Shown here piece by piece: positions 16,885-54,358 of a DNA stretch of 64,000 nucleotides. The notes beneath the pieces are model-generated. The model had not been told where the DNA came from, made no database searches, and worked only from the letters and a program-made list of their open reading frames with translations. The stretch spans positions 1 through 64,000 of the IMG/VR virus record IMGVR_UViG_3300042894_004034; one strand, given 5' to 3'. Made by a program: the position numbers and the translations under genes. Source of the DNA: a virus. Taxonomy: Duplodnaviria > Heunggongvirae > Uroviricota > Caudoviricetes. Within the stretch, counting starts at the first letter, position 1. Each line of letters starts with the position of its first letter.

Positions 16885-17100
16885 ATGGGGCATAGATTTG
16901 TAATCATGAAAGGCACTGAGCTTTTTGTGTATGATCAATACAAAGATATTCCTGACGATCTAGATCATGTGATAGAATTTCTGCCCGAAATTCCACCTGA
17001 ACCACACACTCAACAGCAGCACGAAGAGATAGATGCCTGGTGTGGTCTTTTTTTAAAACTTATGGAAAAGGCATATGCGACCAGTAGCAAGATTAGGTGA
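16885..17100 (+). CDS. hypothetical small protein
   Basis: ORF. Confidence 0.3.
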   Translation: MGHRFVIMKGTELFVYDQYKDIPDDLDHVIEFLPEIPPEPHTQQQHEEIDAWCGLFLKLMEKAYATSSKIR

Positions 17101-17362
17101 TCCCGGAGTTCCACATTGTTCTCCCTACGTTATTGCCAACGGCAGTCCCACGGTATTTGTCAATTTAAAACCTGCTGCAAGATTAGGTGATATTAGCACA
17201 GCGCATTTACGACCCGGTAATCCGTGTCGAGGGCATGTGGCGCCAATTTCTTCAGGAAGTCCAACTGTGTTTGTTAATCTTAGACCTTTGGCACGACTGG
17301 GCGATCCCTTGGCCGCATGTACTTTTATAGCTTCCGGAAGTCCAACCGTTTTTGCAGGATAA
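17075..17362 (+). CDS. PAAR-repeat spike-tip protein
   Basis: Three repeats of ARLGD...GSPTVFVN, including a literal PAARLGD. Cys/His Zn site. Confidence 0.75.
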   Translation: MRPVARLGDPGVPHCSPYVIANGSPTVFVNLKPAARLGDISTAHLRPGNPCRGHVAPISSGSPTVFVNLRPLARLGDPLAACTFIASGSPTVFAG

Positions 17363-17365
17363 CAC

Positions 17366-19294
17366 ATGGCCATAAGTGTGTTGACTCCATTACAAATGAT
17401 TGCCGGCGCCACGTTAAGCAACAACGGTGGAGTGGCCATTGCCAACACCTGGACAGCAGCAGTAACAGCCTACACCAGCACATCACTATTGACGCCATTT
17501 TTTAATACTGTGGGTAATAGTGCTGCTGCCAACATCAGTGGAAACACACTGACCAGCATGTTTACATTTTGTGCAAACACTGTGCCTGCACTAGCTGACA
17601 ACACACCTGCTGCGTATGCGTCTCTAGGCACAAACACCACATCTGGATTTACTGGCATAATTACTGCCCAGGGCTCTAGCTATCTTGGCAATGGCAATGT
17701 TGCAGTTTTTGCGCAGGTGTTTGGTGCAGCACAAGGTTACATAACTTCGGTCAATCAATTTATCAACACCAGCGTAAACAGTCAGACCTATCTTGGGTCA
17801 ACGTTTACCACCATGAACAGTCTTGTCACTGGCAATCTCAGTGACACCACCTTGGCCATGACAACATTTGGACTAGACCTAGAAGCACTGGGACAATTGA
17901 TTGATCTTGACAATCTTGGTAATTTTGGTTCTCCAGCAGCACTGCTACGACAATTGGTTACACTGACCAATCTCACACCAAACATTCAAGCTATCTTGAT
18001 TCAAGCAGGACTTGACGAAGCCAGCATTGGTAATCTAACCACTCCCAATGTCAATGTAAGTGATAGTGTACAACATCTGGCATACCTGGGCCTGCTGAAT
18101 GTCACAGGTACTGACCTAGAACAGGTGTTGGCTATTTTTGGTGTGACTACCAAGAACATAAACACCATGGCAGACCTGTTGAATCCTGCAAAAATATTCC
18201 CCAACAGCATTGCCAGTCTCACAGTACGCACCTACAATCAAGATACCACGTCAGTGCTACGGGCCATCTACGACAACACACAAGGCACAGTGAATTCAAA
18301 ATTGTTGATTTACTTGCCAAGATATGTGTTGACCTTGGGTACTCTGAATATAATCAGCTACGAAAGACTTGCCAGAATCATACCAGCAGACCAGGCTCTG
18401 GCCTGCAAGGCCATACAAGTTAGTCTACAACAAATAAAAAATATAAGCAATCTCAATTTATCTCAACTGGCAGTAGCATTTGCTTTCATGCAGACCACGA
18501 GAGATCTGCCATCTATATCTGCACTAGAACAGGCTGTGCCTGCTAGCGTGGCTGCATACTATTCTAATTCATATGCTACCGGCTCAGGACCAGACGGAAC
18601 ACTGGTAATTACTGATCTTCTTGGCGCAGCAGTCGGAGTTGACTATACAAGTGTGCTGAGCAACACCACAGTCACAATCAACAGTATGACCAGTGCAGGT
18701 ATCCTGGCCGGGTTGACCGACACCTATGGCAGAATGCAAAATACTGTCAACGGAGTGTACGGCAATGCTGTTGCCGGACCAGTTACGATTCCTGCAGGCA
18801 CAGGTGTTGGAGTGTATGCCAATGCTGATGCAGCATTACAACAACTAATAGCCAATGCCACAGTGCAGGTTTCTAACATATCCGCAACATACCCTACCCA
18901 ATCAGGCGTTTTAAATTCTGACTTCAACTCGATGGCAGCAAAATTGATTTCTGAAAATACCAATCTTGCACTGGCCAGCATAGACATTGCCAATCTTGAC
19001 GCATCGGGTCGCGGACCAGTCATGAGTTTTGTGCAAAATCTGCCTGACTACGGAATCAATACAGAAGCCAATGGTCCAGCACAGTTTATCGAAACAGTGG
19101 CTGATCTTACCACCCAAGGCGGACAAGCTATTGTGGCCTGCCTGAGAGAAGGACGTAATCTCTTGGTGCTAAACGGCGTGGGCATTGGGCAAGATACTGC
19201 CATACCCAGCGAGTATGCAGGCGTAGTTCCGCAGGCCAATCTCATACCATCCACCTATTCAGACGCAGAAGCAGCCAATCTAGTGGTAAAATAA
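17366..19294 (+). CDS. large Thr/Asn/Ala/Gly-rich virion (tail/baseplate?) protein
   Basis: 642 aa, immediately after the PAAR gene. Composition typical of phage fibre/baseplate proteins. Confidence 0.45.
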   Translation: MAISVLTPLQMIAGATLSNNGGVAIANTWTAAVTAYTSTSLLTPFFNTVGNSAAANISGNTLTSMFTFCANTVPALADNTPAAYASLGTNTTSGFTGIITAQGSSYLGNGNVAVFAQVFGAAQGYITSVNQFINTSVNSQTYLGSTFTTMNSLVTGNLSDTTLAMTTFGLDLEALGQLIDLDNLGNFGSPAALLRQLVTLTNLTPNIQAILIQAGLDEASIGNLTTPNVNVSDSVQHLAYLGLLNVTGTDLEQVLAIFGVTTKNINTMADLLNPAKIFPNSIASLTVRTYNQDTTSVLRAIYDNTQGTVNSKLLIYLPRYVLTLGTLNIISYERLARIIPADQALACKAIQVSLQQIKNISNLNLSQLAVAFAFMQTTRDLPSISALEQAVPASVAAYYSNSYATGSGPDGTLVITDLLGAAVGVDYTSVLSNTTVTINSMTSAGILAGLTDTYGRMQNTVNGVYGNAVAGPVTIPAGTGVGVYANADAALQQLIANATVQVSNISATYPTQSGVLNSDFNSMAAKLISENTNLALASIDIANLDASGRGPVMSFVQNLPDYGINTEANGPAQFIETVADLTTQGGQAIVACLREGRNLLVLNGVGIGQDTAIPSEYAGVVPQANLIPSTYSDAEAANLVVK

Positions 19295-19365
19295 CCCTGG
19301 ATGCATCACAATCCGCTAAGTAACTAGTGTGAATAGCACAAAAATTAATTTTAAGGAAAAACCTC

Positions 19366-20247
19366 ATGAAGAAATATGCTTTAGTAATGGCCCTAGCATT
19401 GGCCGCCTCCCTAGCACAAGCTGACGCCACCGTTTACGGTAAAGCTCGTGTGTACCAAGAAAACACCAAGACCGGCACCGCCGAAGGTGTAACCGCGTTG
19501 ACAAACGATTCCAGCCGTTTCGGTATCAAAGCCACAGAAGCACTTGCTGGCGGCATCACTGCTGGCGTTGTGCTTGAAACTGGCTACGGTGGCGACGCTC
19601 CTGCAGCAACCACACTGGGTGACCGCACTGCTGTTGTTGGCTTGTCTCACAAGTTGGGTTCCGTGGCCATGGGTCGTGACAAACACACCATTGCTCGCAC
19701 ACTTGACAACTATGACGCCATGGGCAATGCTTTTGGTTCCAGCACCGCAGTTATTCATGCTGCACAAGGTTCACGTTTGCAAAATGCAGTGTTCTTGACT
19801 GCCAAGCCTGTTGCTGGACTTTCTGCTACGTATGCAATTGCCAACAGTGAAGTTGCTGGTGGCACTACAGAATCACAAGCCAGCAGTGTTGAGTACACTG
19901 TAGGTGCTGTGAGCGCAACTGCTGCTCGTTTGACCACTGGTACCAACAGCTATTCAGGCATCGTTGGTGCTAGACTAGCTCTGGCATCTGGCACAAAAGT
20001 ATTTGCGATGTATTCTGAAGACAAAGTATCTGGTGCATCAACCACTGGTAAATCAGTTGGTGTTAACCAGGCTGTTGGTGCAGTGACTTTGCTTGCTGGC
20101 TACGGTGAGAATGACACTGTCAAGGCCTACAATGTTGGCGCATCTTATGCACTGAGCAAGAACACTTTGGTTCATGCACGTTATGTCAAAGAAGATTCTG
20201 CAACCAATGTACAGAAATTTGGTGCTGGTCTAGAAGTCAACTTCTAA
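19366..20247 (+). CDS. Gram-negative general porin (Neisseria/Burkholderia porin_4-like) with signal peptide
   Basis: Signal peptide MKKYALVMALALAASLAQA. TVYGKARVY...RFGIKA...LETGY N-terminal pattern. C-terminal ...GLEVNF with terminal Phe. SD AAGGAAAAA. Confidence 0.65.
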   Translation: MKKYALVMALALAASLAQADATVYGKARVYQENTKTGTAEGVTALTNDSSRFGIKATEALAGGITAGVVLETGYGGDAPAATTLGDRTAVVGLSHKLGSVAMGRDKHTIARTLDNYDAMGNAFGSSTAVIHAAQGSRLQNAVFLTAKPVAGLSATYAIANSEVAGGTTESQASSVEYTVGAVSATAARLTTGTNSYSGIVGARLALASGTKVFAMYSEDKVSGASTTGKSVGVNQAVGAVTLLAGYGENDTVKAYNVGASYALSKNTLVHARYVKEDSATNVQKFGAGLEVNF

Positions 20248-20278
20248 ATCCTGCACTGTATAACGCAGTACAACAAAA

Positions 20279-20302
20279 ACCCGCTGAGGCGGGTTTTCTT
20301 TT
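20279..20302 (+). terminator. rho-independent terminator
   Basis: ACCCGC/GCGGGT stem, loop TGAG, then TTTCTTTTG. Confidence 0.7.
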
Positions 20303-20304
20303 GG

Positions 20305-20333
20305 TTGACCAATAATACCCATGATGCTATAAT
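20305..20333 (+). promoter_or_regulatory. conserved sigma70-type promoter, family copy 1 (TTGACC-17-TATAAT, then ACACACATG)
   Basis: TTGACCAATAATACCCATGATGCTATAATACACACATG. The ATG at 20341 follows the -10 element directly. Confidence 0.6.
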
Positions 20334-20340
20334 ACACACA

Positions 20341-20493
20341 TGCAACCAGCTGCTGCCCGTTATGAAAAGTTCAAACGAAAGATGTTGTTGTACTATCATC
20401 GCAGCGAATTTACAGTGGTAGAATGGATTGTGTGGTTGGCTATTTTGGGTTGGTTGACCAATATTGCTCGAAATGCTATAATACACACATAGA
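20341..20493 (+). CDS. small hydrophobic protein (50 aa), possibly leaderless
   Basis: ATG 8 nt after the -10 element. Contains VVEWIVWLAILGWL TM segment. Not in the ORF table (<60 aa). Confidence 0.3.
20454..20482 (+). promoter_or_regulatory. conserved sigma70-type promoter, family copy 2
   Basis: TTGACCAATATTGCTCGAAATGCTATAATACACACA. Followed by SD GGAG and ATG 20512. Confidence 0.6.
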
Positions 20494-20511
20494 GCAAAAC
20501 AGGAGCAGAGA

Positions 20512-20703
20512 ATGGACATTACTCAAGCTATCTCAATCTGTGAACAGTATCGCATTGATCACAGCGTCAGCGGGTTTTTGTTAGAAACTCTGGAATCCAT
20601 GCTGGCTGCAAAACAACGCAACGAACTCACTGCTGAACAGCGAGTGGCCCTGCAAACAGTCATGAACAAAGGTATGAGCCTGATTGCAAAGGCTGAAAAA
20701 TGA
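20512..20703 (+). CDS. hypothetical small protein
   Basis: ORF downstream of promoter copy 2. Confidence 0.45.
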   Translation: MDITQAISICEQYRIDHSVSGFLLETLESMLAAKQRNELTAEQRVALQTVMNKGMSLIAKAEK

Positions 20704-21050
20704 AATGGTTTGCTGAAACAACTGAATGGTCCGGTGACACGGCACCCAATCATGTGTACCTGATGGACGATGGCAAGAGCAAGATGTATGCCTATGTGAA
20801 GTTTGGCACAGGAGCAGCACACAAATTTCGTACGCCCATGCGGATTGACATCCGTGGACGCAAATTCAAAATTGTGCCTGATCAATGGAATGTTTCTGTT
20901 GACGTGGCACCACCTGCAGGTGAGACCTGGACCGTGGCCGGCAGCAAGGGTGAGGTTTATACCGTGACTCGGTTAAACGGCAACTTGAGCTGCACTTGCT
21001 CGGGATTTCGATTCCGCGGCCAGTGCAAGCACACAAAACAAAACGGTTGA
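20700..21050 (+). CDS. SWIM zinc-finger protein
   Basis: C-terminal ...SCTCSGFRFRGQCKH, a CxCxnCxH SWIM signature. Confidence 0.5.
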   Translation: MKWFAETTEWSGDTAPNHVYLMDDGKSKMYAYVKFGTGAAHKFRTPMRIDIRGRKFKIVPDQWNVSVDVAPPAGETWTVAGSKGEVYTVTRLNGNLSCTCSGFRFRGQCKHTKQNG

Positions 21051-25169: not shown

Positions 25170-25973
25170 ATGAAGCGTATTTTAACTCTCTCTATCTTGG
25201 CTGCTGCTGTACTGGCAACAGGTTGTACTCGTATTGAAACTGGTGAAGTTGGTGTGCGAGTGGGTTTTGATAAACAGGTCCAGAGTGGTGAACTACTTCC
25301 TGGGTCTTTCAATCAATCAATCATTGGTGAGGTTCTTACGTTCCCCATCAAGGACGTAAACGTGGTGCTGGAGAATATGACTCCTGTTGCCCGAGACAAC
25401 AGCACCATGAAAGACTTTGATGCAGTGGTTGTTTACAACATCAACCCCCAGCAAGTAAGTGAATTGTATGCAACCAAGAACAAGAGCTTCCATACCGAGT
25501 TCAAAGGTGATACCTATGTGATGTACAATTACATTGTGCAGAATGCTCGTAACGCTATCTACAAGGCCGCTCGTAAGTATGAGGCCCTGGACATGGCAGA
25601 TGCCCGTAGCGACATGGAAACCTTTATCAAGGAAGAAATTGTTCGCAATCTTGCCGAAGAAAAACTGGACGGTAGTATCAGTATTAGTCAAGTGCTAATC
25701 CGTAATATTGTACCAGCTGACTCAGTTGTGGCCAGTGCTAACGAATTGGTCAAGGCCAAGAACGAGTTCAAGACCGAAGAAGTCAAAGTGGCCACTGCTC
25801 GCAAGCGTAATGAGTCAATGCAGGCCAACCCAATGGCAATTCCCTTGCTGATGGCCGAAGCACAAGCAGATGCCATGCGTAAGTTGCCAGATGCTATTGC
25901 CAACTTCAAAGGTCAAACCTTGGTCATCAACGGTGTTGTGACTCCCACAGTACAGACCAACAGCGCAAAATAA
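25170..25973 (+). CDS. SPFH/band-7 (stomatin/HflK-like) domain lipoprotein
   Basis: Lipobox LATGC. TGEVGVRVGFDK...GSFNQ...LTFPIKDVNV resembles the SPFH core. Confidence 0.5.
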   Translation: MKRILTLSILAAAVLATGCTRIETGEVGVRVGFDKQVQSGELLPGSFNQSIIGEVLTFPIKDVNVVLENMTPVARDNSTMKDFDAVVVYNINPQQVSELYATKNKSFHTEFKGDTYVMYNYIVQNARNAIYKAARKYEALDMADARSDMETFIKEEIVRNLAEEKLDGSISISQVLIRNIVPADSVVASANELVKAKNEFKTEEVKVATARKRNESMQANPMAIPLLMAEAQADAMRKLPDAIANFKGQTLVINGVVTPTVQTNSAK

Positions 25974-27199: not shown

Positions 27200-28612
27200 A
27201 TGTTTCTTAGTCTTATAACTCTAGCCGTGGCTCTGAGTCTCAGCGTTATTGCTGCCTACTACAGCATTGCCGGCCTGGCAGCTATATTTGCAGCCGCAGT
27301 GATACCCATCATGATCATGGGATCCATCCTGGAATTGGCCAAGGTGGTTGTGACCATATGGCTGCACGAGTACTGGCCACGAGCCAGATGGTTGATGAAA
27401 ATATACCTGGTGTCTGCTGTGATCATGCTAATGTTGATCACCAGCATGGGCATCTTTGGTTTCTTGTCAAAAGCACACAGTGATCAGAGTCTTGTGAGTG
27501 GCGACAGTCAGGCCAAGGTTTTGATCTTTGATGAAAAAATTCGAACATCCAAAGACAACATTGACGCCAACCGTCGGGCACTTAAACAGATGGATGAAGC
27601 TGTGGACCAGGTCATGGGTCGCAGTGCCGATGAGAAAGGTGCTGAGAAAGCTGTTCAGATCCGCAGATCTCAAAATAAAGAACGTGCTCGTCTCATAGCC
27701 GAAATTGACACTGAGCAGAAAACCGTGGCCAAGCTGAACGAAGAAGCAGCACCACTCCGAGCAGAATTTCGCAAGATCGAAGCTGAAGTAGGTCCAATCA
27801 AGTACATTGCAGCCTTGATCTACGGTGACAATCCTGATGCCAATGTTCTGGAACGTGCAGTACGCTGGGTGATCATGTTGTTGGTTTGTGTATTTGATCC
27901 ACTAGCTATCATGATGCTGTTGGCATCTACAGAAAGTCTCAAGTGGGCACGTGAAGGTCGCACCAGTCGAGTGCTTGAACCTGAGCCACCAGCATATGAA
28001 CCTGATGATGGTCCCATTGATCCAGAAGTACTGGAACAGTTACGTGCTAGAGCACAACAAGACTTGCCCACTGGCGAACTTGTGAGCCGGCAAGAACTAT
28101 TTCCTGAGAACCCGCATCCAGCCGGTTGGATGTTTGAGCCCGACCCACAGCCAGTGCCACAAGCAGCAGAAACAACACTGCCCGACGATGATGACTCCGA
28201 CGAAGAAAGTCCTGAACTCAAAGCAGCCATGACACAATGGAAGGCCGAGAATCCCACAGACACACTCAAACATCAACGAAAATTATTTGACTCTGGGCAG
28301 ATAGAAGAACTGCCTTGGCTAAAGTTTTTGCCATCACATGAACCTACATCTGGATTTGGAACACACCTGCCCGACACTGCTGTAAAAGGTGACAGCTATG
28401 TGTTGACCACAACGATTCCCAATGTGTTGTATAAATTCAACGGCTCCGGCTGGATCAAAGTTGACAATTCTATAAAAGACCAGTATACTTACGACATAGC
28501 ATACATAGATCACTTGATTGTTCAAATTGAAAAAGGATTGTATGATCCTGAGCTTTTGAGTGACAGTGAACGTGATCAAATCGAACAACGCATACAACAA
28601 CTTCCAGAATAA
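27200..28612 (+). CDS. multi-pass membrane protein with central coiled coil and acidic C-terminal domain
   Basis: Four hydrophobic helices at the N-terminus, Q/E/K-rich heptads, [11 protein letters not shown]. Confidence 0.45.
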
Positions 28613-28616
28613 AATA

Positions 28617-29828
28617 ATGATCAAAGAAACCCATTCCTCATGCAGCTTCTGTGGCAAAAATAAAGATGACGTGCGTAAACTTATTGTTGGCGAGTATGCA
28701 GGCATCTGCAACGAGTGCGTGGATTTTTGTCAGGGACTGTTGTCAACTGACGAACCAGTTGTGCCACCCGAACCACCATCAGCCAAACTAGATCCAATGA
28801 TCCTGAAGAACTATCTGGATCAGTATGTGATTGGTCAGGACGCTGCCAAGATCATGATCAGTGTGGCCATTGTGAATCATTACAAACGCATCAGCAAGAC
28901 CACAACTGATCCAGAAATGGACAAAGCCAACATCTTGATGTTAGGACCCACTGGCTCAGGCAAAACTTTGTTGGCCAAGTCAGTGGCACGTTATCTTGAT
29001 GTGCCATTTGCCATTGCTGATGCCACAAGTATCACTGAAGCAGGATATGTGGGTGACGATGTGGAAAGTCTAATCACTAGATTGTATGCTGCATCAGGCA
29101 ACGATGTGGCCAAGACACAGCAGGGTATTGTGTTTGTGGATGAGATTGACAAAATTGCTCGCAAGGGCGAAAGCTCGTCGATCACTAGAGATGTGTCAGG
29201 CGAAGGTGTACAACAGGCCCTGTTAAAAATGGTAGAAGGCACTGTGTGTCGTATTCCAGCAGCAGGTGGTGGCAGAAAGCATCCTGGTGGTGACATGATT
29301 GAAATTGACACTCGCAACATTTTGTTTATTGCTGGTGGCGCATTTGTGGGGCTAGATACCATAGTGAAAAATCGTGTGCAAGGAACCTCCATTGGCTTTA
29401 ACGCCAAGGTTGCAAAAACATCTATTGATACCGATCTGGACATGACCACACCAGATGACCTGGTGAAGTTTGGCATGATTCCGGAATTTGTTGGACGTTT
29501 TCCCAACTGGGTCAGTTTGAAACAACTCAGCAAAGCGGACCTGATTAGAATTCTCACAGAGATCAAGAATAACTATGTGGATCAGTATCGTTGGCTATTT
29601 TCTGAAGATGGCGTGGACTTGACGTTTACTGTGGCGGCACTGGATGAGATTGCGGAGCGCACCTTGGTCAATCAAACTGGTGCACGTGGTCTGCACAGCG
29701 AACTAGAACGTGTGCTGTTGCCGCACATGTTTCATCTTGCACAATACCGCCAGCAAGGCATTGCTGTGCTGTCAATTGACACGGATCAGGTGGCAGAACC
29801 CGAGGAACTCCGGGTTGTAAACAGCTAA
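28617..29828 (+). CDS. clpX: ATP-dependent Clp protease ATPase subunit ClpX
   Basis: N-terminal C4 zinc-binding domain (CSFCG...CNEC). Walker [13 protein letters not shown] pore loop ([10 protein letters not shown]). Walker [10 protein letters not shown]. Start taken at ATG 28617; the table ORF begins at 28560. Confidence 0.85.
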
Positions 29829-29829
29829 A

Positions 29830-30090
29830 ATGTACATTGAATTTGCATGGTCAAAGGATGGTGGCGGTCAGACAGCAGCACATGCAGTGGGCACAGTTTC
29901 TAAAAAACTGGCCACCTGGGCAAACAAGTACAACGTCGAGTACAAGACAAAAATAATCAAATGCAAGTTACGAGTAACTTTTGATTTGGACGAGTATTAC
30001 ACATTGTTTGGGCTGACCTGGGTCTTGGACCCAAAGTACCCAAGCTGGACAAATTACCGACTGATATCTGACCTAAATAACAAAATATAA
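29830..30090 (+). CDS. hypothetical protein
   Basis: ORF. Confidence 0.4.
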   Translation: MYIEFAWSKDGGGQTAAHAVGTVSKKLATWANKYNVEYKTKIIKCKLRVTFDLDEYYTLFGLTWVLDPKYPSWTNYRLISDLNNKI

Positions 30091-30173
30091 TTCTGATCTG
30101 TAGTATAATAAATACTGCGGTAGATGCCCATGGTGGGGTCTACACTAGTCATCTTGCTTAATAGGAGAAAAAC

Positions 30174-30620
30174 ATGACAAAAACTCTCACCCTTCGTAGT
30201 TTCGATATTCCTGCAATTCACAAGTTTGGAATTGGATTTGATAATCTATTTGACGACCTTATGCGTGTCACACAGCATCAAGCCACTACAAACTATCCTC
30301 CCCACAATGTGATCAAAACTGGCGACGACACTGTCACCATTGAAGTTGCTGTGGCTGGATTTGCTGAAGGAGAAATTGATATCAGTCTGGATAAACGTCA
30401 GTTGGTGATCTCTGGTGCCAAAGCAACAGAACAAGATCAAGCTCACGAATATCTACATCGTGGTATTTCACAACGCGACTTTAAACAAACATTCCCACTC
30501 AGTGAGCATGTGGAAGTAAACGGCGCAAGCATCAGCAATGGTATCTTGACTGTGTATCTGGAACGCAAAGTTCCTGAGTCAGCCAAGCCTAAAAGTATTG
30601 CAATCACATACGCAGTATAA
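30174..30620 (+). CDS. small heat-shock protein, Hsp20/IbpA family
   Basis: Alpha-crystallin domain pattern: IEVAVAGFAEGEIDISLDKRQLVISG ... GILTVYLER. SD AGGAGAAAAAC. Confidence 0.8.
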   Translation: MTKTLTLRSFDIPAIHKFGIGFDNLFDDLMRVTQHQATTNYPPHNVIKTGDDTVTIEVAVAGFAEGEIDISLDKRQLVISGAKATEQDQAHEYLHRGISQRDFKQTFPLSEHVEVNGASISNGILTVYLERKVPESAKPKSIAITYAV

Positions 30621-37671: not shown

Positions 37672-37964
37672 ACGATATACTACCCAACATTTTTTCTTGG
37701 ATACGAGATGACTATAAAACTTACCCTGTGCGTTTTGCAGTTGAGATTGTGGCTTGGGCAGTGTCTATTGGCTGCTCGATCACAATGGCGATCACCGTCC
37801 CAAACCCTCCGTTGTTGTACATGTATCCTATCTGGATCACTGGTTGTGCCATGTATGCTTGGGCTAGTTATACTAGGAAATCTTTTGGTATGCTGGCTAA
37901 CTACATCCTGTTGGTGAGCATAGACATGGTGGGACTGGTTCGCATGATTCTGCAAATTGTGTAA
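37668..37964 (+). CDS. small membrane protein
   Basis: Three hydrophobic segments. Confidence 0.4.
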   Translation: MNDILPNIFSWIRDDYKTYPVRFAVEIVAWAVSIGCSITMAITVPNPPLLYMYPIWITGCAMYAWASYTRKSFGMLANYILLVSIDMVGLVRMILQIV

Positions 37965-37977
37965 CAAAATTGTAACA
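37960..37977 (+). promoter_or_regulatory. Pho-box-like direct repeat TGTAACA-N4-TGTAACA upstream of pstS
   Basis: Two 7-bp repeats at 11-bp periodicity, 39 nt before pstS ATG. Second copy at 39291..39308. Confidence 0.45.
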
Positions 37978-38015
37978 TTTTAGTCATTAAATAAATGTAC
38001 TAACAAGGAGTCAAG

Positions 38016-39011
38016 ATGAAAAAATTATTAGCTATTCTATTATCAGTTGTTGCAGTTTCTGCAACAGCACAAGAAGTTACAGGAGCCGGTGCAACATTTC
38101 CGGCTCCGTTGTATTCAAAGTGGGCTAGTGACTACAACCGCGTGACCAACATCAAAATCAACTATCAGTCAGTTGGCTCAGGTGCAGGTATCAAACAGAT
38201 TGAAGCCAAGACAGTCACGTTTGGTGCAAGTGATATGCCACTCACAGATGATCGACTAAAAGATCTGGGACTATTCCAGTTCCCCACAGCAATTGGCGGC
38301 GTGGTTCCTGTGATCAACGTCAAGGGCATCGAACCTGGACAAATGAAACTCACAGGCACATTGCTTGCTGATATCTTTCTAGGCAAAATTACTCGCTGGG
38401 ATGACGCTGCTATCCGGGCACTAAACCCCTCATTAGCATTACCTGACCAAGCAATCACTGTGGTTCGCAGAGCAGATGGATCAGGAACTACATTTATCTG
38501 GACCAACTATCTCAGCAAGGTATCTAAAGAATTCAAAGACACCATTGGTGAAGGCACAGCAGTCAACTGGAAAGTTGGAGCAGGCGGCAAAGGCAACGAA
38601 GGTGTTGCTGCCATGGTTAGACAACTTCCAGGAACACTGGGCTATGTTGAATTTGCTTATGTAAAACAAACCAAGATGAACTGGGTCAATGTACAGAACG
38701 CTGCTGGCACCTGGGTGGCACCCACAGAAGAATCATTCAAGGCAGCTGCCGCAAATGCTGACTGGAACCGAACATACTTTCAGATTCTAACCAATCAAGC
38801 AGGCAAAGAAGCATGGCCCATCTCAGGTGCTACATTTATCCTAGTGTATTTGAAACCCGAAGATGCTGCTAAATCCAAAACTGCTATTGCTTTCTTTGAC
38901 TGGGCATTTGCCAGTGGAGATCGAGCAGCAGATGACCTAGACTATGTGGCATTGCCTTTAGCAGTGAAGAACAAGATTCGTGCAGACTGGAAACGGTTGG
39001 CACTACACTAA
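38016..39011 (+). CDS. pstS: phosphate ABC transporter substrate-binding protein PstS
   Basis: Signal peptide. TGAGATFPAPLY...SVGSGAGIKQ...GASDMPL...RADGSGTTF PstS hallmarks. SD AAGGAG. Confidence 0.85.
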   Translation: MKKLLAILLSVVAVSATAQEVTGAGATFPAPLYSKWASDYNRVTNIKINYQSVGSGAGIKQIEAKTVTFGASDMPLTDDRLKDLGLFQFPTAIGGVVPVINVKGIEPGQMKLTGTLLADIFLGKITRWDDAAIRALNPSLALPDQAITVVRRADGSGTTFIWTNYLSKVSKEFKDTIGEGTAVNWKVGAGGKGNEGVAAMVRQLPGTLGYVEFAYVKQTKMNWVNVQNAAGTWVAPTEESFKAAAANADWNRTYFQILTNQAGKEAWPISGATFILVYLKPEDAAKSKTAIAFFDWAFASGDRAADDLDYVALPLAVKNKIRADWKRLALH

Positions 39012-39131: not shown

Positions 39132-39293
39132 ATGAAACAATCAAAATTGATCACAAAATTATACCGAGCCTGCGTTGACCACGATGACAAGAAGATTCAA
39201 CAACTTCGTCAAGAAGAATATCGAAAAATTCTGAAACACAAGGCTGCTGGCAAGGCATTTACTGCCCGATGGACTCTGGTACAGATATAGTGT
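39132..39293 (+). CDS. small basic protein (~53 aa)
   Basis: ATG with SD AAGGA. Not in the ORF table. Confidence 0.25.
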
Positions 39294-39308
39294 AACACAA
39301 CTGTAACA
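39291..39308 (+). promoter_or_regulatory. Pho-box-like direct repeat TGTAACA-N4-TGTAACA
   Basis: Same 18-nt motif as at 37960, 32 nt before ATG 39340. Confidence 0.45.
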
Positions 39309-39339
39309 TTATTGGGGCGAACTTCTGCTTAAATACCCC

Positions 39340-40104
39340 ATGCAGAAAACTTATCGCAGTATCTTTATCTCAGATGTACATCTTGGTACCAGAGACTGCC
39401 AAGCAGAGAAACTCAACAACTTTCTAAAAAACAACACCTGCGAGACCCTGTATCTTGTGGGAGACATAATAGATGCCTGGCGCATACAACAAAACAAGTG
39501 GCGTTGGAAACAGAGCCATACCAACGTGGTACGCAGAGTGCTAGGTCATGCCAAGCGTGGTACTAGAGTTGTGTATGTGGCCGGCAACCATGACGAATTT
39601 CTAAGGCCCATGATACCATATGGATTTAGTTTCGGACATGTTGAAATACACAATCAGATAGAACACATAGGTGCAGATGGCAATCATTATCTGGTGGTGC
39701 ATGGTGACTTGTTTGATGGCATCACCAGACTGGCGCCCTGGATAGCATTTCTTGGAGATCGAGCATATGATATCATTCTTTCTGTCAACAGCAAGTTCAA
39801 TTGGATACGTCGCCGTATGGGTTTTGGGTACTTTAGCCTTAGCAAGTTTCTTAAGCACAAGGTCAAAAAAGCAGTAGACTTCATGTTCAAGTTTGAAGAA
39901 AATCTAGCAGGCTACTGCAAGAAGCGTGGCTTTGATGGAGTCATCTGTGGACACATACACCACGCAGAGATCAAAGAGATCAACGGAGTTACATACATGA
40001 ATGATGGCGACTGGGTTGAATCATGCACAGCCCTGGTAGAACATCATGATGGTGCATGGGAAATAGTTACTTGGACCCGGGAGACAGACCATGAAAATCA
40101 GTGA
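39340..40104 (+). CDS. LpxH-like metallophosphoesterase (UDP-2,3-diacylglucosamine hydrolase family)
   Basis: N-terminal SIFISDVHLG...LYLVGDIIDAW pattern of the LpxH/YaeI family. GNHD, GHIHH motifs. Confidence 0.55.
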   Translation: MQKTYRSIFISDVHLGTRDCQAEKLNNFLKNNTCETLYLVGDIIDAWRIQQNKWRWKQSHTNVVRRVLGHAKRGTRVVYVAGNHDEFLRPMIPYGFSFGHVEIHNQIEHIGADGNHYLVVHGDLFDGITRLAPWIAFLGDRAYDIILSVNSKFNWIRRRMGFGYFSLSKFLKHKVKKAVDFMFKFEENLAGYCKKRGFDGVICGHIHHAEIKEINGVTYMNDGDWVESCTALVEHHDGAWEIVTWTRETDHENQ

Positions 40105-40801
40105 CAAAATCACTATAGTAGTGCCTTGCAAGAATGAAGAGGCATATATTCATCATTTGCTAGATGCTTTGCGAGCACAGAACATAGGTGATACTAGAGT
40201 TATCATTGCTGACTGTTCAACTGATACAACTAGACAAGTTATACAGGACAACAGTTGGGAATTGAATGTTGAAATAATCGACGGCGGTCCTGTGTCTATG
40301 GCCAAGAACAACGGAGCACGACTAGCCACTACCCCATACATCTTGTTCATTGATGCTGATGTGCGTTTTTTCAAATACGATGTGATCCGTGATGCTGTGG
40401 ATAAAATTGAATCTATGAACCTGGATCTTGTGGGTCTGAACATCAAGTGTTATGATCAAGACCTTAGAGCAAAAGCAGGATTTGTTGTGTTCAACACCAT
40501 AAATCATGCGCTGAAATATTTCTCTCCTTTTGCAGTTGGAGCGTTCATGCTCACACGTAGAGATCGGTTTGAAGAATATGGCGGTTTCCCTGAAAACTTT
40601 TCCACCAGCGAAGATTACTTTTTGTCCAGAAAATACAGCCCTCGAAAGTTTAGAATCATCCGACACCACCTTGGACAGGATAGTCGTAGATTCAAAAAGA
40701 TGGGCTACATGGGCATGGCCAAGTACCTTGTGAAAAACTTTGTGAATCGCAACAACAAACAATACTGGGACAGCCTAGACAACAGCAAGTACTGGAGTTG
40801 A
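40091..40801 (+). CDS. family 2 glycosyltransferase
   Basis: ITIVVPCKNEE start. DxD-like FIDADV. Confidence 0.6.
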   Translation: MKISDKITIVVPCKNEEAYIHHLLDALRAQNIGDTRVIIADCSTDTTRQVIQDNSWELNVEIIDGGPVSMAKNNGARLATTPYILFIDADVRFFKYDVIRDAVDKIESMNLDLVGLNIKCYDQDLRAKAGFVVFNTINHALKYFSPFAVGAFMLTRRDRFEEYGGFPENFSTSEDYFLSRKYSPRKFRIIRHHLGQDSRRFKKMGYMGMAKYLVKNFVNRNNKQYWDSLDNSKYWS

Positions 40802-44150: not shown

Positions 44151-44371
44151 AAAAACTCTTGATACCCATAGCAGCTCTGGTTCTAAGTGGCTGCATGTCC
44201 ATTGTGCAAAGATCACCTCCTGTGGATGTGAGTCTGATACCCAATGATTGTGCCAATCAACAGCGTATTGTGCGCTGGTTAGAAAATCAAAGCCGAGGAG
44301 AATGGAATGAACAAGTCGCTCAAATCAAAGCACGTATTTGGCATCTTCGTTACACTTGCAATCCTGTGTAG
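44138..44371 (+). CDS. small lipoprotein
   Basis: MEPMKKLLIPIAALVLSGC lipobox. Confidence 0.5.
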   Translation: MEPMKKLLIPIAALVLSGCMSIVQRSPPVDVSLIPNDCANQQRIVRWLENQSRGEWNEQVAQIKARIWHLRYTCNPV

Positions 44372-44642
44372 CGGATGTGCTTCAAACTCACAGCAGCCCA
44401 TGGCCGCATATGACCTGGATTATTTTCAGATCACATGTTCCCAAAAGGCACAACAGATTGCCATGTTGCAAAGTATGCGCAGCACCAGAGATGACAGACT
44501 GTTTGCACGGGCCAGCAATGCACTACAACCCTGGTTGATAATTACCAACCCAGGTCAGTACAATGAAAATATATCACGTGGGTCAAGTCGTACAGATTGG
44601 CTGCTGAATCAGAAACTCATGGAGTTAGCACAATGTCCATGA
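44307..44642 (+). CDS. lipoprotein
   Basis: Signal peptide with lipobox LCSGC. Confidence 0.5.
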   Translation: MNKSLKSKHVFGIFVTLAILCSGCASNSQQPMAAYDLDYFQITCSQKAQQIAMLQSMRSTRDDRLFARASNALQPWLIITNPGQYNENISRGSSRTDWLLNQKLMELAQCP

Positions 44643-45202
44643 AAACCATAATATATGGCCTGGCGCTGGTCACAGCAGCAGCACAAGCCGACCAGTGTGT
44701 GCTGCAAGACAAAACAGTTTTACACAGTGCCGTGACTGTGGCAGAACGCACCAAGATCACGGCCACAGTTGTGCCCGAACCCACAGGTGGCAAAAGATGT
44801 CTGGTAAACTTTCAGGCCAGAGTTGGTGCCATCTGGTACACCGCATTTGGTGAATATGCCTGGTCTGGAGACACACCAAGAGATCAAGCCTGTGCAGCAG
44901 CCACACGTCGAGCCGATGATTCAGTAAGAGAACAAGTGAGTTCCAGCAGAGTAATTTCGGAAAAGGTTTTGATTTGCCGGGATGATCCTACTCTAAATAC
45001 TCTGCGACAAGTGAATCCAGGTGTCACCGGAGAACTGGCACAATTCAGACCACACCCAGACTATGCCACTGAATTCTGGCACAACGGAACCCAGTGTCGT
45101 TGGTTCCTGGACACAGGATATATCGTGCGTGATGTGCGTACATGGCAAGGTATTATTTGTAAAATCCATGACTCAAAATGGGTAGTGATTGACAAATTTT
45201 AG
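44597..45202 (+). CDS. secreted protein (signal peptide, Cys-rich)
   Basis: MSMKTIIYGLALVTAAAQA signal peptide. Confidence 0.5.
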   Translation: MAAESETHGVSTMSMKTIIYGLALVTAAAQADQCVLQDKTVLHSAVTVAERTKITATVVPEPTGGKRCLVNFQARVGAIWYTAFGEYAWSGDTPRDQACAAATRRADDSVREQVSSSRVISEKVLICRDDPTLNTLRQVNPGVTGELAQFRPHPDYATEFWHNGTQCRWFLDTGYIVRDVRTWQGIICKIHDSKWVVIDKF

Positions 45203-45399: not shown

Positions 45400-45972
45400 A
45401 TGAAATATTTTATTGCATTGGTTACTGTGGCCTTGTTGGCCGCATGTGGCTCAACCCCCAAAGAACAGTACGAACGGCGTGCCTATGAAGAACGTCAGCG
45501 ACAAGAAAAAGCAGTGACATCTGCTATTGATCGAGCACCTAAATGGATGACTGAACTGCCTGTGAGTAACAGTGCAGTGTATGCCAATGGCAGTGCAGTC
45601 AGCACAGACATGAGCATGGCAGACTACAAGGCCAAGCTGTTTGCGTATGGCAAGATTTGCATGGCAGCAGGCGGAAAAGTCAGTCAGCAATCCAAGATTT
45701 TTATGATGGACACATCTGAAGCCAGCCACGAAACCAGTGAAATTGCCATTCGCGGCATGTGCCCAGGCGTGGATATTACCGGGGTCGAAACCAAAGAAAT
45801 CAAGCGAGTTGCTGATGGCACCAGATTCCGTAGCTATGTGCTGGTGGCCCTGCCAACAGGTGATGCCAATGTGCTGAAAAAACGTCAGGATCAGATACGA
45901 CTGCAAGCACAAGCCCAGGGTCGTAGCCAACAAGCGTTTGAAGAACTGGACACTGTAACACAAAAGCAATAA
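45400..45972 (+). CDS. lipoprotein
   Basis: Lipobox LLAACGS. SD AAGGA. Confidence 0.5.
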   Translation: MKYFIALVTVALLAACGSTPKEQYERRAYEERQRQEKAVTSAIDRAPKWMTELPVSNSAVYANGSAVSTDMSMADYKAKLFAYGKICMAAGGKVSQQSKIFMMDTSEASHETSEIAIRGMCPGVDITGVETKEIKRVADGTRFRSYVLVALPTGDANVLKKRQDQIRLQAQAQGRSQQAFEELDTVTQKQ

Positions 45973-53077: not shown

Positions 53078-53106
53078 TTGACCAATATTACCCGAAGTGC
53101 TATAAT
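53078..53106 (+). promoter_or_regulatory. conserved sigma70-type promoter, family copy 5
   Basis: TTGACCAATATTACCCGAAGTGCTATAATACACACA. Confidence 0.6.
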
Positions 53107-53131
53107 ACACACAGAGCAACAAAGGACTAAC

Positions 53132-54358
53132 ATGATCCAACTTTGGGCATATCTAGCAATCAGCCTGGTGTTGACAGCCTGCGGCGGCGGCTCAGACAAT
53201 GGTCAGCCCAGTTCAGATCAGAATCAGATAACTCCGACTGTTGCATTTACTAGAGTGCTAAATCAAATTACTGAGAGAAACAGAGTTGAAACCTATGCTG
53301 TAGGTGATCTCAATGGCGACGGACTAGATGATGTAGTAGTTGGTGGGTGGACAGGCACAGGCACGTCATACCTTGCTGTGCTGATTCAAAATGCCAACGG
53401 TTCACTAACTGATCGAACTGTTCAGCTGGCAGGAACTAATCAGTACTCCGGTAGCCAGCGCATGTTCATACTGGACGTGGACAACGATGGATTTGCGGAT
53501 ATTTGGCTGCCCGGATTCAATGACTGCACGGGTTGTTCTGCCCAAAGTGTCATGCTTTGGGGCAATGCGAATGGTATCTTTACACGGCAAACTTTTGCTA
53601 CTGCCATAGATAGTCATGGAGCAGGTGTTGCTGATCTCAACGGCGATGGACGTAAGGATTTTCTTATTCGCGGGGTCTGGGACGGAACCACAAACAACTA
53701 CGGATATTATTTGAACAATGGCAATAGAGCGTTTACTTTTGTAACAAACTCGCAATTAAATGGTGCAGCAACGTGTGCAGTAGCCAAAGATCCAGTCTCG
53801 GGTCATATTGCAGTGGTTCAAGGCAACAACAACCAAGTAGCAGGATTTAGTCACAGTATCAATATTTTTGACGCCAACCTAAATTTAATCACGCAAATCG
53901 GTGTGGCCAGTCAAGATCCTGCAGTCAATGACTTGATCAACAGCATCAGTGTTGATGTCAACGCAGATGGATTAATGGATTTTGTGCTGGTGTTTAATCC
54001 TTTAGCAGGCGCAGGCGGCAGGAGAGAAGTTTGGCTCAATCGCGGCGCAGACAACTTTTCATATGCATACACAATTGACAGTGGCTACAGCAACGGCTAT
54101 GACATTCAAGCCCTAGCCTATCAAGGGTCCAGTTACTATCATTTCAATGCTGCCAACGGAGATGGCAATTTGTACCGACTCCAAGGTGGTCAATTTCTAG
54201 GGTACCTGCGAGAAAGCTTTTTGACCATGGCACGTGCCTTGGGAGCCAACCCCGGAGTCAGAGACTGGAGTGTGTGGTCTTCCACTGTTTATCGAGGCGC
54301 CTCAGGCATGTACATGCTGCAACATGTGACCGGGGGCTACTACACCCAAAAACTTTGA
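53132..54358 (+). CDS. FG-GAP/VCBS-repeat lipoprotein
   Basis: Lipobox LVLTAC. Repeated DxNGDG Ca-binding-type motifs: DLNGDGLDDVVVGGW, DVDNDGFADIWL, DLNGDGRKDFLI, DVNADGLMDFVLV. Start at ATG 53132; the table gives TTG 53078, which is the -35 element. Confidence 0.55.
   Translation: MIQLWAYLAISLVLTACGGGSDNGQPSSDQNQITPTVAFTRVLNQITERNRVETYAVGDLNGDGLDDVVVGGWTGTGTSYLAVLIQNANGSLTDRTVQLAGTNQYSGSQRMFILDVDNDGFADIWLPGFNDCTGCSAQSVMLWGNANGIFTRQTFATAIDSHGAGVADLNGDGRKDFLIRGVWDGTTNNYGYYLNNGNRAFTFVTNSQLNGAATCAVAKDPVSGHIAVVQGNNNQVAGFSHSINIFDANLNLITQIGVASQDPAVNDLINSISVDVNADGLMDFVLVFNPLAGAGGRREVWLNRGADNFSYAYTIDSGYSNGYDIQALAYQGSSYYHFNAANGDGNLYRLQGGQFLGYLRESFLTMARALGANPGVRDWSVWSSTVYRGASGMYMLQHVTGGYYTQKL

Follow-up and report, generated by a model that had tools for sequence, protein, structure and literature searches.

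The 64,000-nucleotide stretch analyzed here (the window; positions 1 to 64,000 of IMG/VR virus record IMGVR_UViG_3300042894_004034, Caudoviricetes) carries at 19366..20247, on the + strand, a gene that by its sequence and modelled structure encodes a genuine outer-membrane general-diffusion porin. Judged from the loci compared, the porin is a positionally stable gene of a jumbo-phage family. On balance it probably acts as an auxiliary uptake pore for the infected cell, an interpretation supported mainly by the repeated pairing of the porin with PstS, TctC and TctA.

Identification of the phage porin

The gene is the sole long open reading frame (ORF) at this position, its product has 293 residues, and its coordinates are exactly those reported earlier from inspection of the letters alone (the sequence-only reading). 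The motifs named in that reading were all found in the translation: TVYGKARVY (residues 22-30), RFGIKA (51-56), LETGY (70-74) and the C-terminal EVNF. The gene and its immediate surroundings comprise:

19353..19357, + strand: Shine-Dalgarno-like AAGGA, 8 nt before the ATG (sequence reading and Shine-Dalgarno scan)
19366..19422, + strand: Sec signal peptide, residues 1-19, MKKYALVMALALAASLAQA, cleaved between AQA and D (sequence features, PorB precursor alignment)
19423..20247, + strand: mature porin, 274 aa plus stop, ending GLEVNF with the C-terminal Phe beta-signal (Pfam, AlphaFold2, Foldseek)
19684..19773, + strand: loop L3, the predicted constriction loop, residues 107-136 (DSSP of the model, conservation)
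20276..20305, + strand: intrinsic terminator AAAACCCGC-TGAG-GCGGGTTTT followed by CTTTTGG (hairpin 20276-20297)
20305..20333, + strand: near-consensus sigma-70 promoter TTGACC-17-TGCTATAAT, which starts the next transcription unit and is the first of a promoter family

Porin_4 (PF13609) was the only Pfam match of the protein (85.3 bits against a cut-off of 27, E = 8.6e-24, residues 8-275 aligned with profile positions 3-304 of 310), neither Porin_1 nor Porin_O_P being matched, and searches of PHROGs and NCBIfam gave no match for it. A sequence search of the PDB returned significant matches solely to beta-proteobacterial porins (Omp32, BpsOmp38, PorB). The AlphaFold2 model, built with 30 homologues as input, had a predicted local distance difference test score (pLDDT) of 82 and a predicted template-modelling score (pTM) of 0.79, and its strands number 16 if residues 42-46 and 51-59 are taken as one bulged strand; the predicted product is a closed 16-strand beta-barrel. 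In a Foldseek comparison of the model with the PDB the first matches were BpsOmp38, Omp32 and PorB, with a template-modelling (TM) score of about 0.78, followed by OmpF-type porins, and the top 50 matches include the 16-strand trimeric porins BpsOmp38, Omp32, PorB and OmpF. The earlier assignment to the 16-strand Porin_4 type was thus borne out by the Pfam profile, the modelled fold and the phage context.

The N-terminus has the make-up of a textbook signal peptidase I substrate, MKKYALVMALALAASLAQA followed by DATVYG, with a KK n-region, a hydrophobic core of 14 residues and the AQA-D cleavage site. When the precursor was aligned through the family profile with that of Neisseria PorB (MKKSLIALTLAALPVAAMA followed by DVTLYG) the two signal peptides matched residue for residue, in agreement with the cleavable signal peptide claimed earlier. 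In the AlphaFold2 model the signal peptide forms a detached helix of low pLDDT (residues 3-14). At the other end of the protein, F293 is invariant and N292 nearly so among the 30 homologues.

Loop L3 consists of 30 residues between strands 5 and 6, with short helices at 108-115 and 127-130 according to the DSSP of the model; it contains the invariant residues D114, D117 and H131 and belongs to the most conserved part of the protein. The invariant residues R51, E71, R87 and R137 match R38, E58, R75 and R133 of Omp32, which form a charged cluster on the barrel wall. By the same DSSP assignment L1 and L5-L8 are turns of 2-5 residues, while L2, L3 and L4 are retained. L2-L4 are also the most conserved loops, and L2, the latching loop of known trimers, contains the highly conserved DAPAATTLGDR; its retention hints at trimer formation, a sign that is only suggestive.

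The Shine-Dalgarno motif and the terminator described by the sequence-only reading were both found. Relatives have AAGGAG or AAGGAA at the place of the AAGGA. The terminator, which starts 29 nt past the porin stop, consists of a T-run after a 9-bp stem in which 5 pairs are GC. All lineages examined have a GC hairpin past the porin stop; most of these hairpins lead into a T-run, and they differ in sequence.

The porin is a resident gene of a jumbo-phage family

The exact porin protein is encoded on 13 independent contigs with identical neighbours, and relatives were found on 25 IMG/VR contigs or loci. Porins of this family were also found on two large contigs, of 244 kb and 357 kb, with about 50% identity for the copy on the former. 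Upstream of the porin the gene order of the 244-kb contig is that of the window (pectate-lyase-like protein, large and small subunits of ribonucleotide reductase, glutaredoxin, a protein of about 635 aa, porin), and past the porin both have small ORFs, a ligase, a ClpX-like protein and HSP20; of this order, the upstream part is found on the 357-kb contig too. Therefore the window is part of a jumbo-phage genome. It has a GC content of 45% and encodes, among others, a DnaB-type helicase, a class I ribonucleotide reductase, an ATP-dependent ligase, an exonuclease, a PAAR protein, a tail-spike-like protein and a protein matching a virion-protein PHROG. No tRNA gene and no Rfam element were found in the window, and no integrase or lysogeny gene was found among the ORFs scanned, which were part of those in the window; the carrier is a lytic-looking jumbo phage. 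Neither megablast of 10 kb nor tblastn of the porin gave a match in 50,697 phage records, and no cultured relative came to light. The ClpX-like ATPase, which has a zf-C4_ClpX domain, and HSP20 lie at 28560-30620 in the window and also at 18606-20900 in locus L039, and the 244-kb relative additionally has ClpS, a proteostasis gene set kept across this jumbo-phage family.

A cellular gene brought in by chimeric assembly, or a contig that is itself cellular, is a highly improbable source of the porin. Such an origin might be read from a scan of GTDB, in which the single match was a 95% identical porin on a contig (L011, NZ_JBBAKG010000031.1) of a metagenome-assembled genome (MAG) labelled 'Haliscomenobacter sp.', and from a further relative (P0115) labelled as an 'Opitutae bacterium' MAG. 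However, L011 runs collinear with the window (89% nucleotide identity), which makes a mis-binned phage contig the best reading of it, and the two MAG labels belong to different phyla. The repeated recovery of the protein with the same neighbours, the 25 loci, the synteny with the two large phage contigs and promoters (TTGACA/TATAAT) and Shine-Dalgarno sites unlike those of Bacteroidota also argue against a cellular source. The apparent presence of phage contigs of this family in MAGs of two phyla, likely through binning contamination, could mislead host prediction.

The reading frame, the length and the C-terminal NF are conserved in more than 120 homologues with identity above 50%, and the observation is far beyond chance. 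The ratio of nonsynonymous to synonymous substitution rates (dN/dS) was 0.09-0.2 for pairs with unsaturated synonymous sites, and that of pstS was similar (0.09). The GC content of the gene (0.498; 0.401 at third codon positions, GC3) is inside the range of the phage. The phage-like GC content of the gene, its dN/dS of about 0.1-0.2 and its identity of only 30% to the nearest confirmed cellular porin show that it is not a recent pickup by the phage. It has the features by which auxiliary metabolic genes are recognized: a host-type transport gene with viral flanks, purifying selection and a composition that has become phage-like by amelioration.

When 1.84 billion representatives were searched exhaustively with a profile, 5,137 relatives were found; 75 had E<=1e-30, and almost all of this group were 291-320 aa long. 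Among the best 150 relatives, 72 clusters are nearer to the window protein (median 301 aa) and 62 nearer to a confirmed cellular porin (median 334 aa), and both groups mostly end in H-x-F. Every genomic context classified down to E of about 1e-30 was phage-like or otherwise mobile (L007, L009, L022, L039, the 357-kb contig, P0187, L037, L043, L045 and L046), with S21, HSP70, NAMPT, DUF2201, RNA ligase, and Rep3 plus tubulin as signatures. Because about a dozen contexts were sampled, we propose a virus-only porin clade as a hypothesis. The nearest confirmed cellular relative, P0198 of an NCBI MAG, has rplM/rpsI and argC as neighbours; it is the 30% identical porin referred to above, and its named relatives are Oxalobacteraceae. 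A homology search with P0187 gave just 5 matches.

The host is predicted to be proteobacterial and probably one of the Burkholderiales, such as Polynucleobacter or a member of the Oxalobacteraceae, judging from the beta-proteobacterial affinity of the porin, the sigma-70 sites, the Shine-Dalgarno motifs and Pho boxes of proteobacterial type. The affinity, already claimed in the sequence-only reading, was seen in all PDB sequence matches, in 165 of 165 PLSDB matches (25-33% identity) and in the nearest cellular relatives, all Betaproteobacteria. The window has 18 TTGAC-N18-TATAAT sites against 1.6 expected, 17 of the 18 on the coding (+) strand, and Shine-Dalgarno-like motifs precede 29% of crude starts against a background of 6%. 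A Bacteroidota host, considered on account of the Haliscomenobacter label and, in part, in view of the huge phages with bS21 (Chen et al., PMC9723584), was rejected on the strength of the excess of these sites, the Shine-Dalgarno motifs and the proteobacterial-type Pho boxes. Many of the sigma-70 sites share TTGACCAATAWT...TGCTATAAT with an extended -10; one family of them comprises:

20305, 20454, 21047, 43707, 53078, 61283 and 63824, + strand: near-identical strong sigma-70 promoters, TTGACCAATAWT...TGCTATAAT

This promoter family marks probable early transcription units and explains why BLAST spuriously matched many loci to a site at about 63.8 kb. The start assigned to the ORF at 53078 overlaps one of these promoters and is probably wrong.

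Association of the porin with uptake genes

Other features of the window that bear on the role of the porin are:

17075-17362: PAAR gene (phrog_281, E = 2e-22)
17366..19294, + strand: orf642, the upstream neighbour of the porin, after the PAAR gene; 642 aa, rich in Ala, Thr, Ser and Asn
37960-37987 and 38016-39011, + strand: Pho-box-like tandem repeat, then pstS (NCBIfam PstS equivalog, 426 bits against 339)
39291-39307, 39340-40104 and 40091-40801, + strand: Pho-box-like site, then LpxH/PlcP-like metallophosphoesterase and glycosyltransferase family 2 (GT2) genes (sequence searches)

Two arrangements of the porin locus were found. In the lineage of the window the order is PAAR, a hypervariable protein of about 640 aa, porin. 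In 11 loci of other lineages the porin is followed by a hairpin, about 110 bp and a pstS gene 83-85% identical to that of the window, and in two of them (L022 and L030) homologues of the window genes at 39340-40104 and 40091-40801 come after pstS. The PstS that the sequence-only reading mentioned alongside the porin is therefore both present in the window and, in sister phages, encoded directly downstream of the porin. The porin-pstS spacer contains a Pho-box-like element, ATGTAAT-ATTA-CTGTCAC, which agrees at 11 of 14 positions with CTGTCAT-N4-CTGTCAT, the consensus quoted from PMC8528852, and which is conserved before pstS in the window too. Exact + strand matches to TGTMAY-N5-TGTMAY were found at two places in the window, directly before pstS and directly before the metallophosphoesterase gene.

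More distant members of the porin family adjoin TctA and/or TctC, of the tripartite tricarboxylate transporter, on phage-like contigs, and the contigs bearing P0155, which are short, have TctC downstream of the porin. TctC-like, TctA and porin genes were seen on L037, L038, L043, L044, L045, L047 and the P0187 contig, often followed by genes for hexapeptide-transferase-like and AMP-binding enzymes and near S21, HSP70, NAMPT and DUF2201. Judged by gene content, viruses seem to carry here a module for tripartite tricarboxylate uptake that includes its own porin.

What was observed, namely the identity and fold of the porin, its location in phage DNA, the purifying selection on it and its recurrent linkage to uptake genes, leads us to the following model. 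The host Sec system would export the precursor, and cleavage would take place behind AQA. The beta-barrel assembly machinery (BAM) would recognize the C-terminal ...NF beta-signal, and the porin would enter the host outer membrane, presumably as a trimer. During a long infection the extra pores could raise or maintain the influx of small hydrophilic solutes to the periplasm, such as orthophosphate and, in related phages, organic acids. Binding proteins encoded by phage and host (PstS; TctC in relatives) would capture these solutes for nucleotide-hungry replication of a genome of more than 200 kb, and the phage would benefit.

Several points weigh against this model. Adjacency in mosaic phage genomes is weak evidence. 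In the window 18 kb separate the porin from pstS; where the two are adjacent, a hairpin lies between them and pstS has its own promoter, so that their co-regulation is without support. No Pho box with at least 11 of 14 positions was found before the porin in the window or in sister loci, and the 9/14 Pho-box resemblance upstream of sister-phage porins is weak and not significant. Nothing in the sequence appears to mark the porin as phosphate-specific, as L3 keeps two invariant Asp residues, as in unspecific porins. The phosphate or nutrient uptake link put forward by the sequence-only reading is accordingly supported by the porin-pstS adjacency and lacks a sign of phosphate specificity, a Porin_O_P match and a Pho box. 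Finally, the sequence before the porin in the window and L011 differs from that of the relatives and shows no evident sigma-70-like promoter. A promoter of this kind is found directly before the porin in L017, L032 and L034 (TTGACA-17-TATTAT or TATAGT), L007, L021 and L022 (TTGACT-17-TATTAG), L025 (TTGACA-17-TATTAC) and also L020. The window porin may be transcribed by read-through from orf642. 'Moron-like' independent expression, as suggested earlier, is thus only partly apt: the terminator was confirmed, no promoter is apparent before the gene, and the gene is positionally conserved, not patchy.

Surface remodelling offers a different account, in which a loop-trimmed porin cannot be used as a receptor by rival phages or by the phage's own progeny, and may be installed while host porins are repressed, by analogy with Lc and NmpC of lambdoid phages. 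We regard superinfection exclusion of this kind as clearly less likely than uptake, yet as a live rival to it. Turns of 2-5 residues in place of L1 and L5-L8 would leave little surface for receptor-binding proteins, and in the lineage of the window the porin adjoins a hypervariable protein that behaves like a receptor-binding gene and is itself preceded by the PAAR gene. In L015-L017 the porin is 96% identical to that of the window and the counterpart of orf642 just 33%. The product of orf642 may be a tail, tail-tip, fibre or receptor-binding component, an assignment that is unproven, and gave no Pfam, PHROG or PDB match; the lack of detectable fibre homology speaks against exclusion. In L032-L035 the mature porin is 47-49% identical to that of the window, whereas the DNA of the signal peptide (window 19366-19425) is nearly unchanged and the downstream terminator and promoter are the same. 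This pattern suggests cassette-like replacement of the mature domain by recombination at conserved flanks, which is typical of surface-interaction loci; the low overall dN/dS, with no sign of diversifying selection, points the other way. A remodelled surface would also fit the phage's genes for several lipoproteins, a nucleotide-sugar dehydrogenase and glycosyltransferases, yet an added porin leaves existing receptors in place.

The precedent for exclusion is provided by Lc (phage PA-2) and NmpC (DLP12 prophage), likewise phage-carried porin genes. Both are OmpC-like members of Porin_1 that temperate enterobacterial phages express in the outer membrane of the host, with a role in lysogenic conversion. 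The window porin differs from them in its jumbo-phage carrier and the absence of a Porin_1 match, no homology to them was detectable by tblastn in the 50,697 phage records, and the ORFs scanned contained no gene for lysogeny. In the lambdoid phages the porin genes come with the small RNA IpeX (PMC12197685). An IpeX-like RNA in the 3' untranslated region of the window porin had no support, the region holding just a 5-bp, non-conserved hairpin and Rfam giving no match.

According to a third account, the phage, with host transcription off during a long infection, renews major outer-membrane proteins and lipids so that the envelope holds until lysis, and the porin is mainly structural. Genes for an SPFH/Band_7 lipoprotein, HSP20, ClpX- and ClpS-like proteins, an LpxH-like phosphoesterase and a GT2 glycosyltransferase in the genome agree with it, and the codon usage of the porin, the most deviant among the 26 genes tested, could reflect high expression. 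Envelope maintenance is nevertheless quite unlikely in our view, porins being very stable and in no need of renewal within one infection, and it leaves the repeated pairing with solute-binding proteins and transporters unexplained. An uptake pore would account for that pairing.

Comparison with known porins and viral uptake modules

Omp32 of Delftia acidovorans, BpsOmp38 of Burkholderia pseudomallei and PorB of Neisseria belong to the same Pfam family as the window porin and share with it, besides the fold, the Arg cluster with Glu on the barrel wall and a GRD motif at the start of L3; the mature N-terminus (D/Q-V-T-V-Y-G), like the signal peptide, resembles that of PorB. The window porin, encoded by a phage, shares only 20-22% identity with these structures and is shorter than they are by about 35-60 residues, with gaps in L3-L7. 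Most family members have a C-terminal signal of the G-x-x-H-x-F type, whereas the window protein has V, not H, at position -3. A naturally minimal 16-strand porin, as predicted here, with 274 residues and almost no surface loops could be of use in porin engineering.

In PhoE of E. coli and OprP/OprO of Pseudomonas a pore is tied to the Pst system, as is the sister-phage porin that precedes a pstS with a Pho box. Unlike these proteins, the phage porin has no match to Porin_O_P, no Pho box of at least 11/14 positions before it and no sign of phosphate selectivity.

Phage porins as such are already known, from Lc and NmpC and from a viral OmpL-like porin. The latter belongs to a glnK-amtB-ompL cluster of viruses from marine oxygen-minimum zones, in which a porin stands beside an uptake system and which was read as an auxiliary metabolic module with the substrate left undefined (Gazitua et al. 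2021, PMC8115048). The logic of porin plus transporter is that of the window family; the differences are that the porin is OmpL-like and of Bacteroidetes origin, that the system concerns ammonium and that it was reported from few contigs, against about 70 clusters at 50% identity here. Porin genes of uncultured phages are also already in databases as automatic annotations. Those of uncultured Caudovirales in BFVD/UniProt (for example A0A6J5L4P1, A0A6J5LP82 and A0A8S5S2G8) are predicted porin folds in metagenomic phages, with 11-22% identity to the window porin, TM-scores that are lower bar one, and lengths of 285-612 aa; we found no study of these proteins. Within our incomplete coverage of the literature, no paper was found that described this Porin_4 clade or reported that jumbo phages conserve it or that it is paired with PstS or TctC.

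Auxiliary phosphate genes of phages (pstS, phoH, phoA) are well studied, and to our knowledge the outer-membrane step of phage-aided uptake has been largely ignored. We tentatively propose, with rather less than even confidence, that large aquatic phages maintain loop-trimmed porins as a lineage of their own with a long evolution, and that these porins, installed in the host outer membrane, open import routes encoded by the phages, for phosphate with PstS and for organic acids with TctC/TctA. If so, viruses would rebuild nutrient uptake from the outer membrane inwards, beyond boosting periplasmic and cytoplasmic steps. A virus-specific porin clade paired with binding proteins would suggest that in waters poor in nutrients phage replication may be limited by how permeable the outer membrane is; phages may also alter how permeable infected cells are and possibly how susceptible these are to other phages.

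Other phosphate- and envelope-related genes

A Pho-box-like site (TGTAACACAACTGTAAC) precedes the metallophosphoesterase gene in the window (39291-40801), L022 (8088-9540), L030 (1837-3289) and L021 (5721-6890), the site in L021 being TTGTCATATATCTGTCAT (13/14). The best NCBIfam match of the metallophosphoesterase was LpxH, at 46 bits and far below the cut-off, and the GT2 gene overlaps it. By resemblance alone, the pair recalls the PhoB-controlled PlcP-Agt operon for remodelling of phospholipids to glycolipids (PMC8528852, PMC4796936); a phage-encoded lipid-remodelling module would be of interest in its own right.

A heuristic signal-peptide scan predicted further envelope proteins at 25170-25973, 44307-44642, 44633-45202, 45400-45972 and 53078-54358 of the window. 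The predicted lipobox proteins (cleavage marked by a slash) are the SPFH/Band_7 protein (LATG/C), a 111-aa protein (LCSG/C) and a 190-aa protein (LAAC/G). The same scan gave an FG-GAP repeat protein with a lipobox, LTAC/G, when read from an internal start, and a separate secreted protein of 189 aa.

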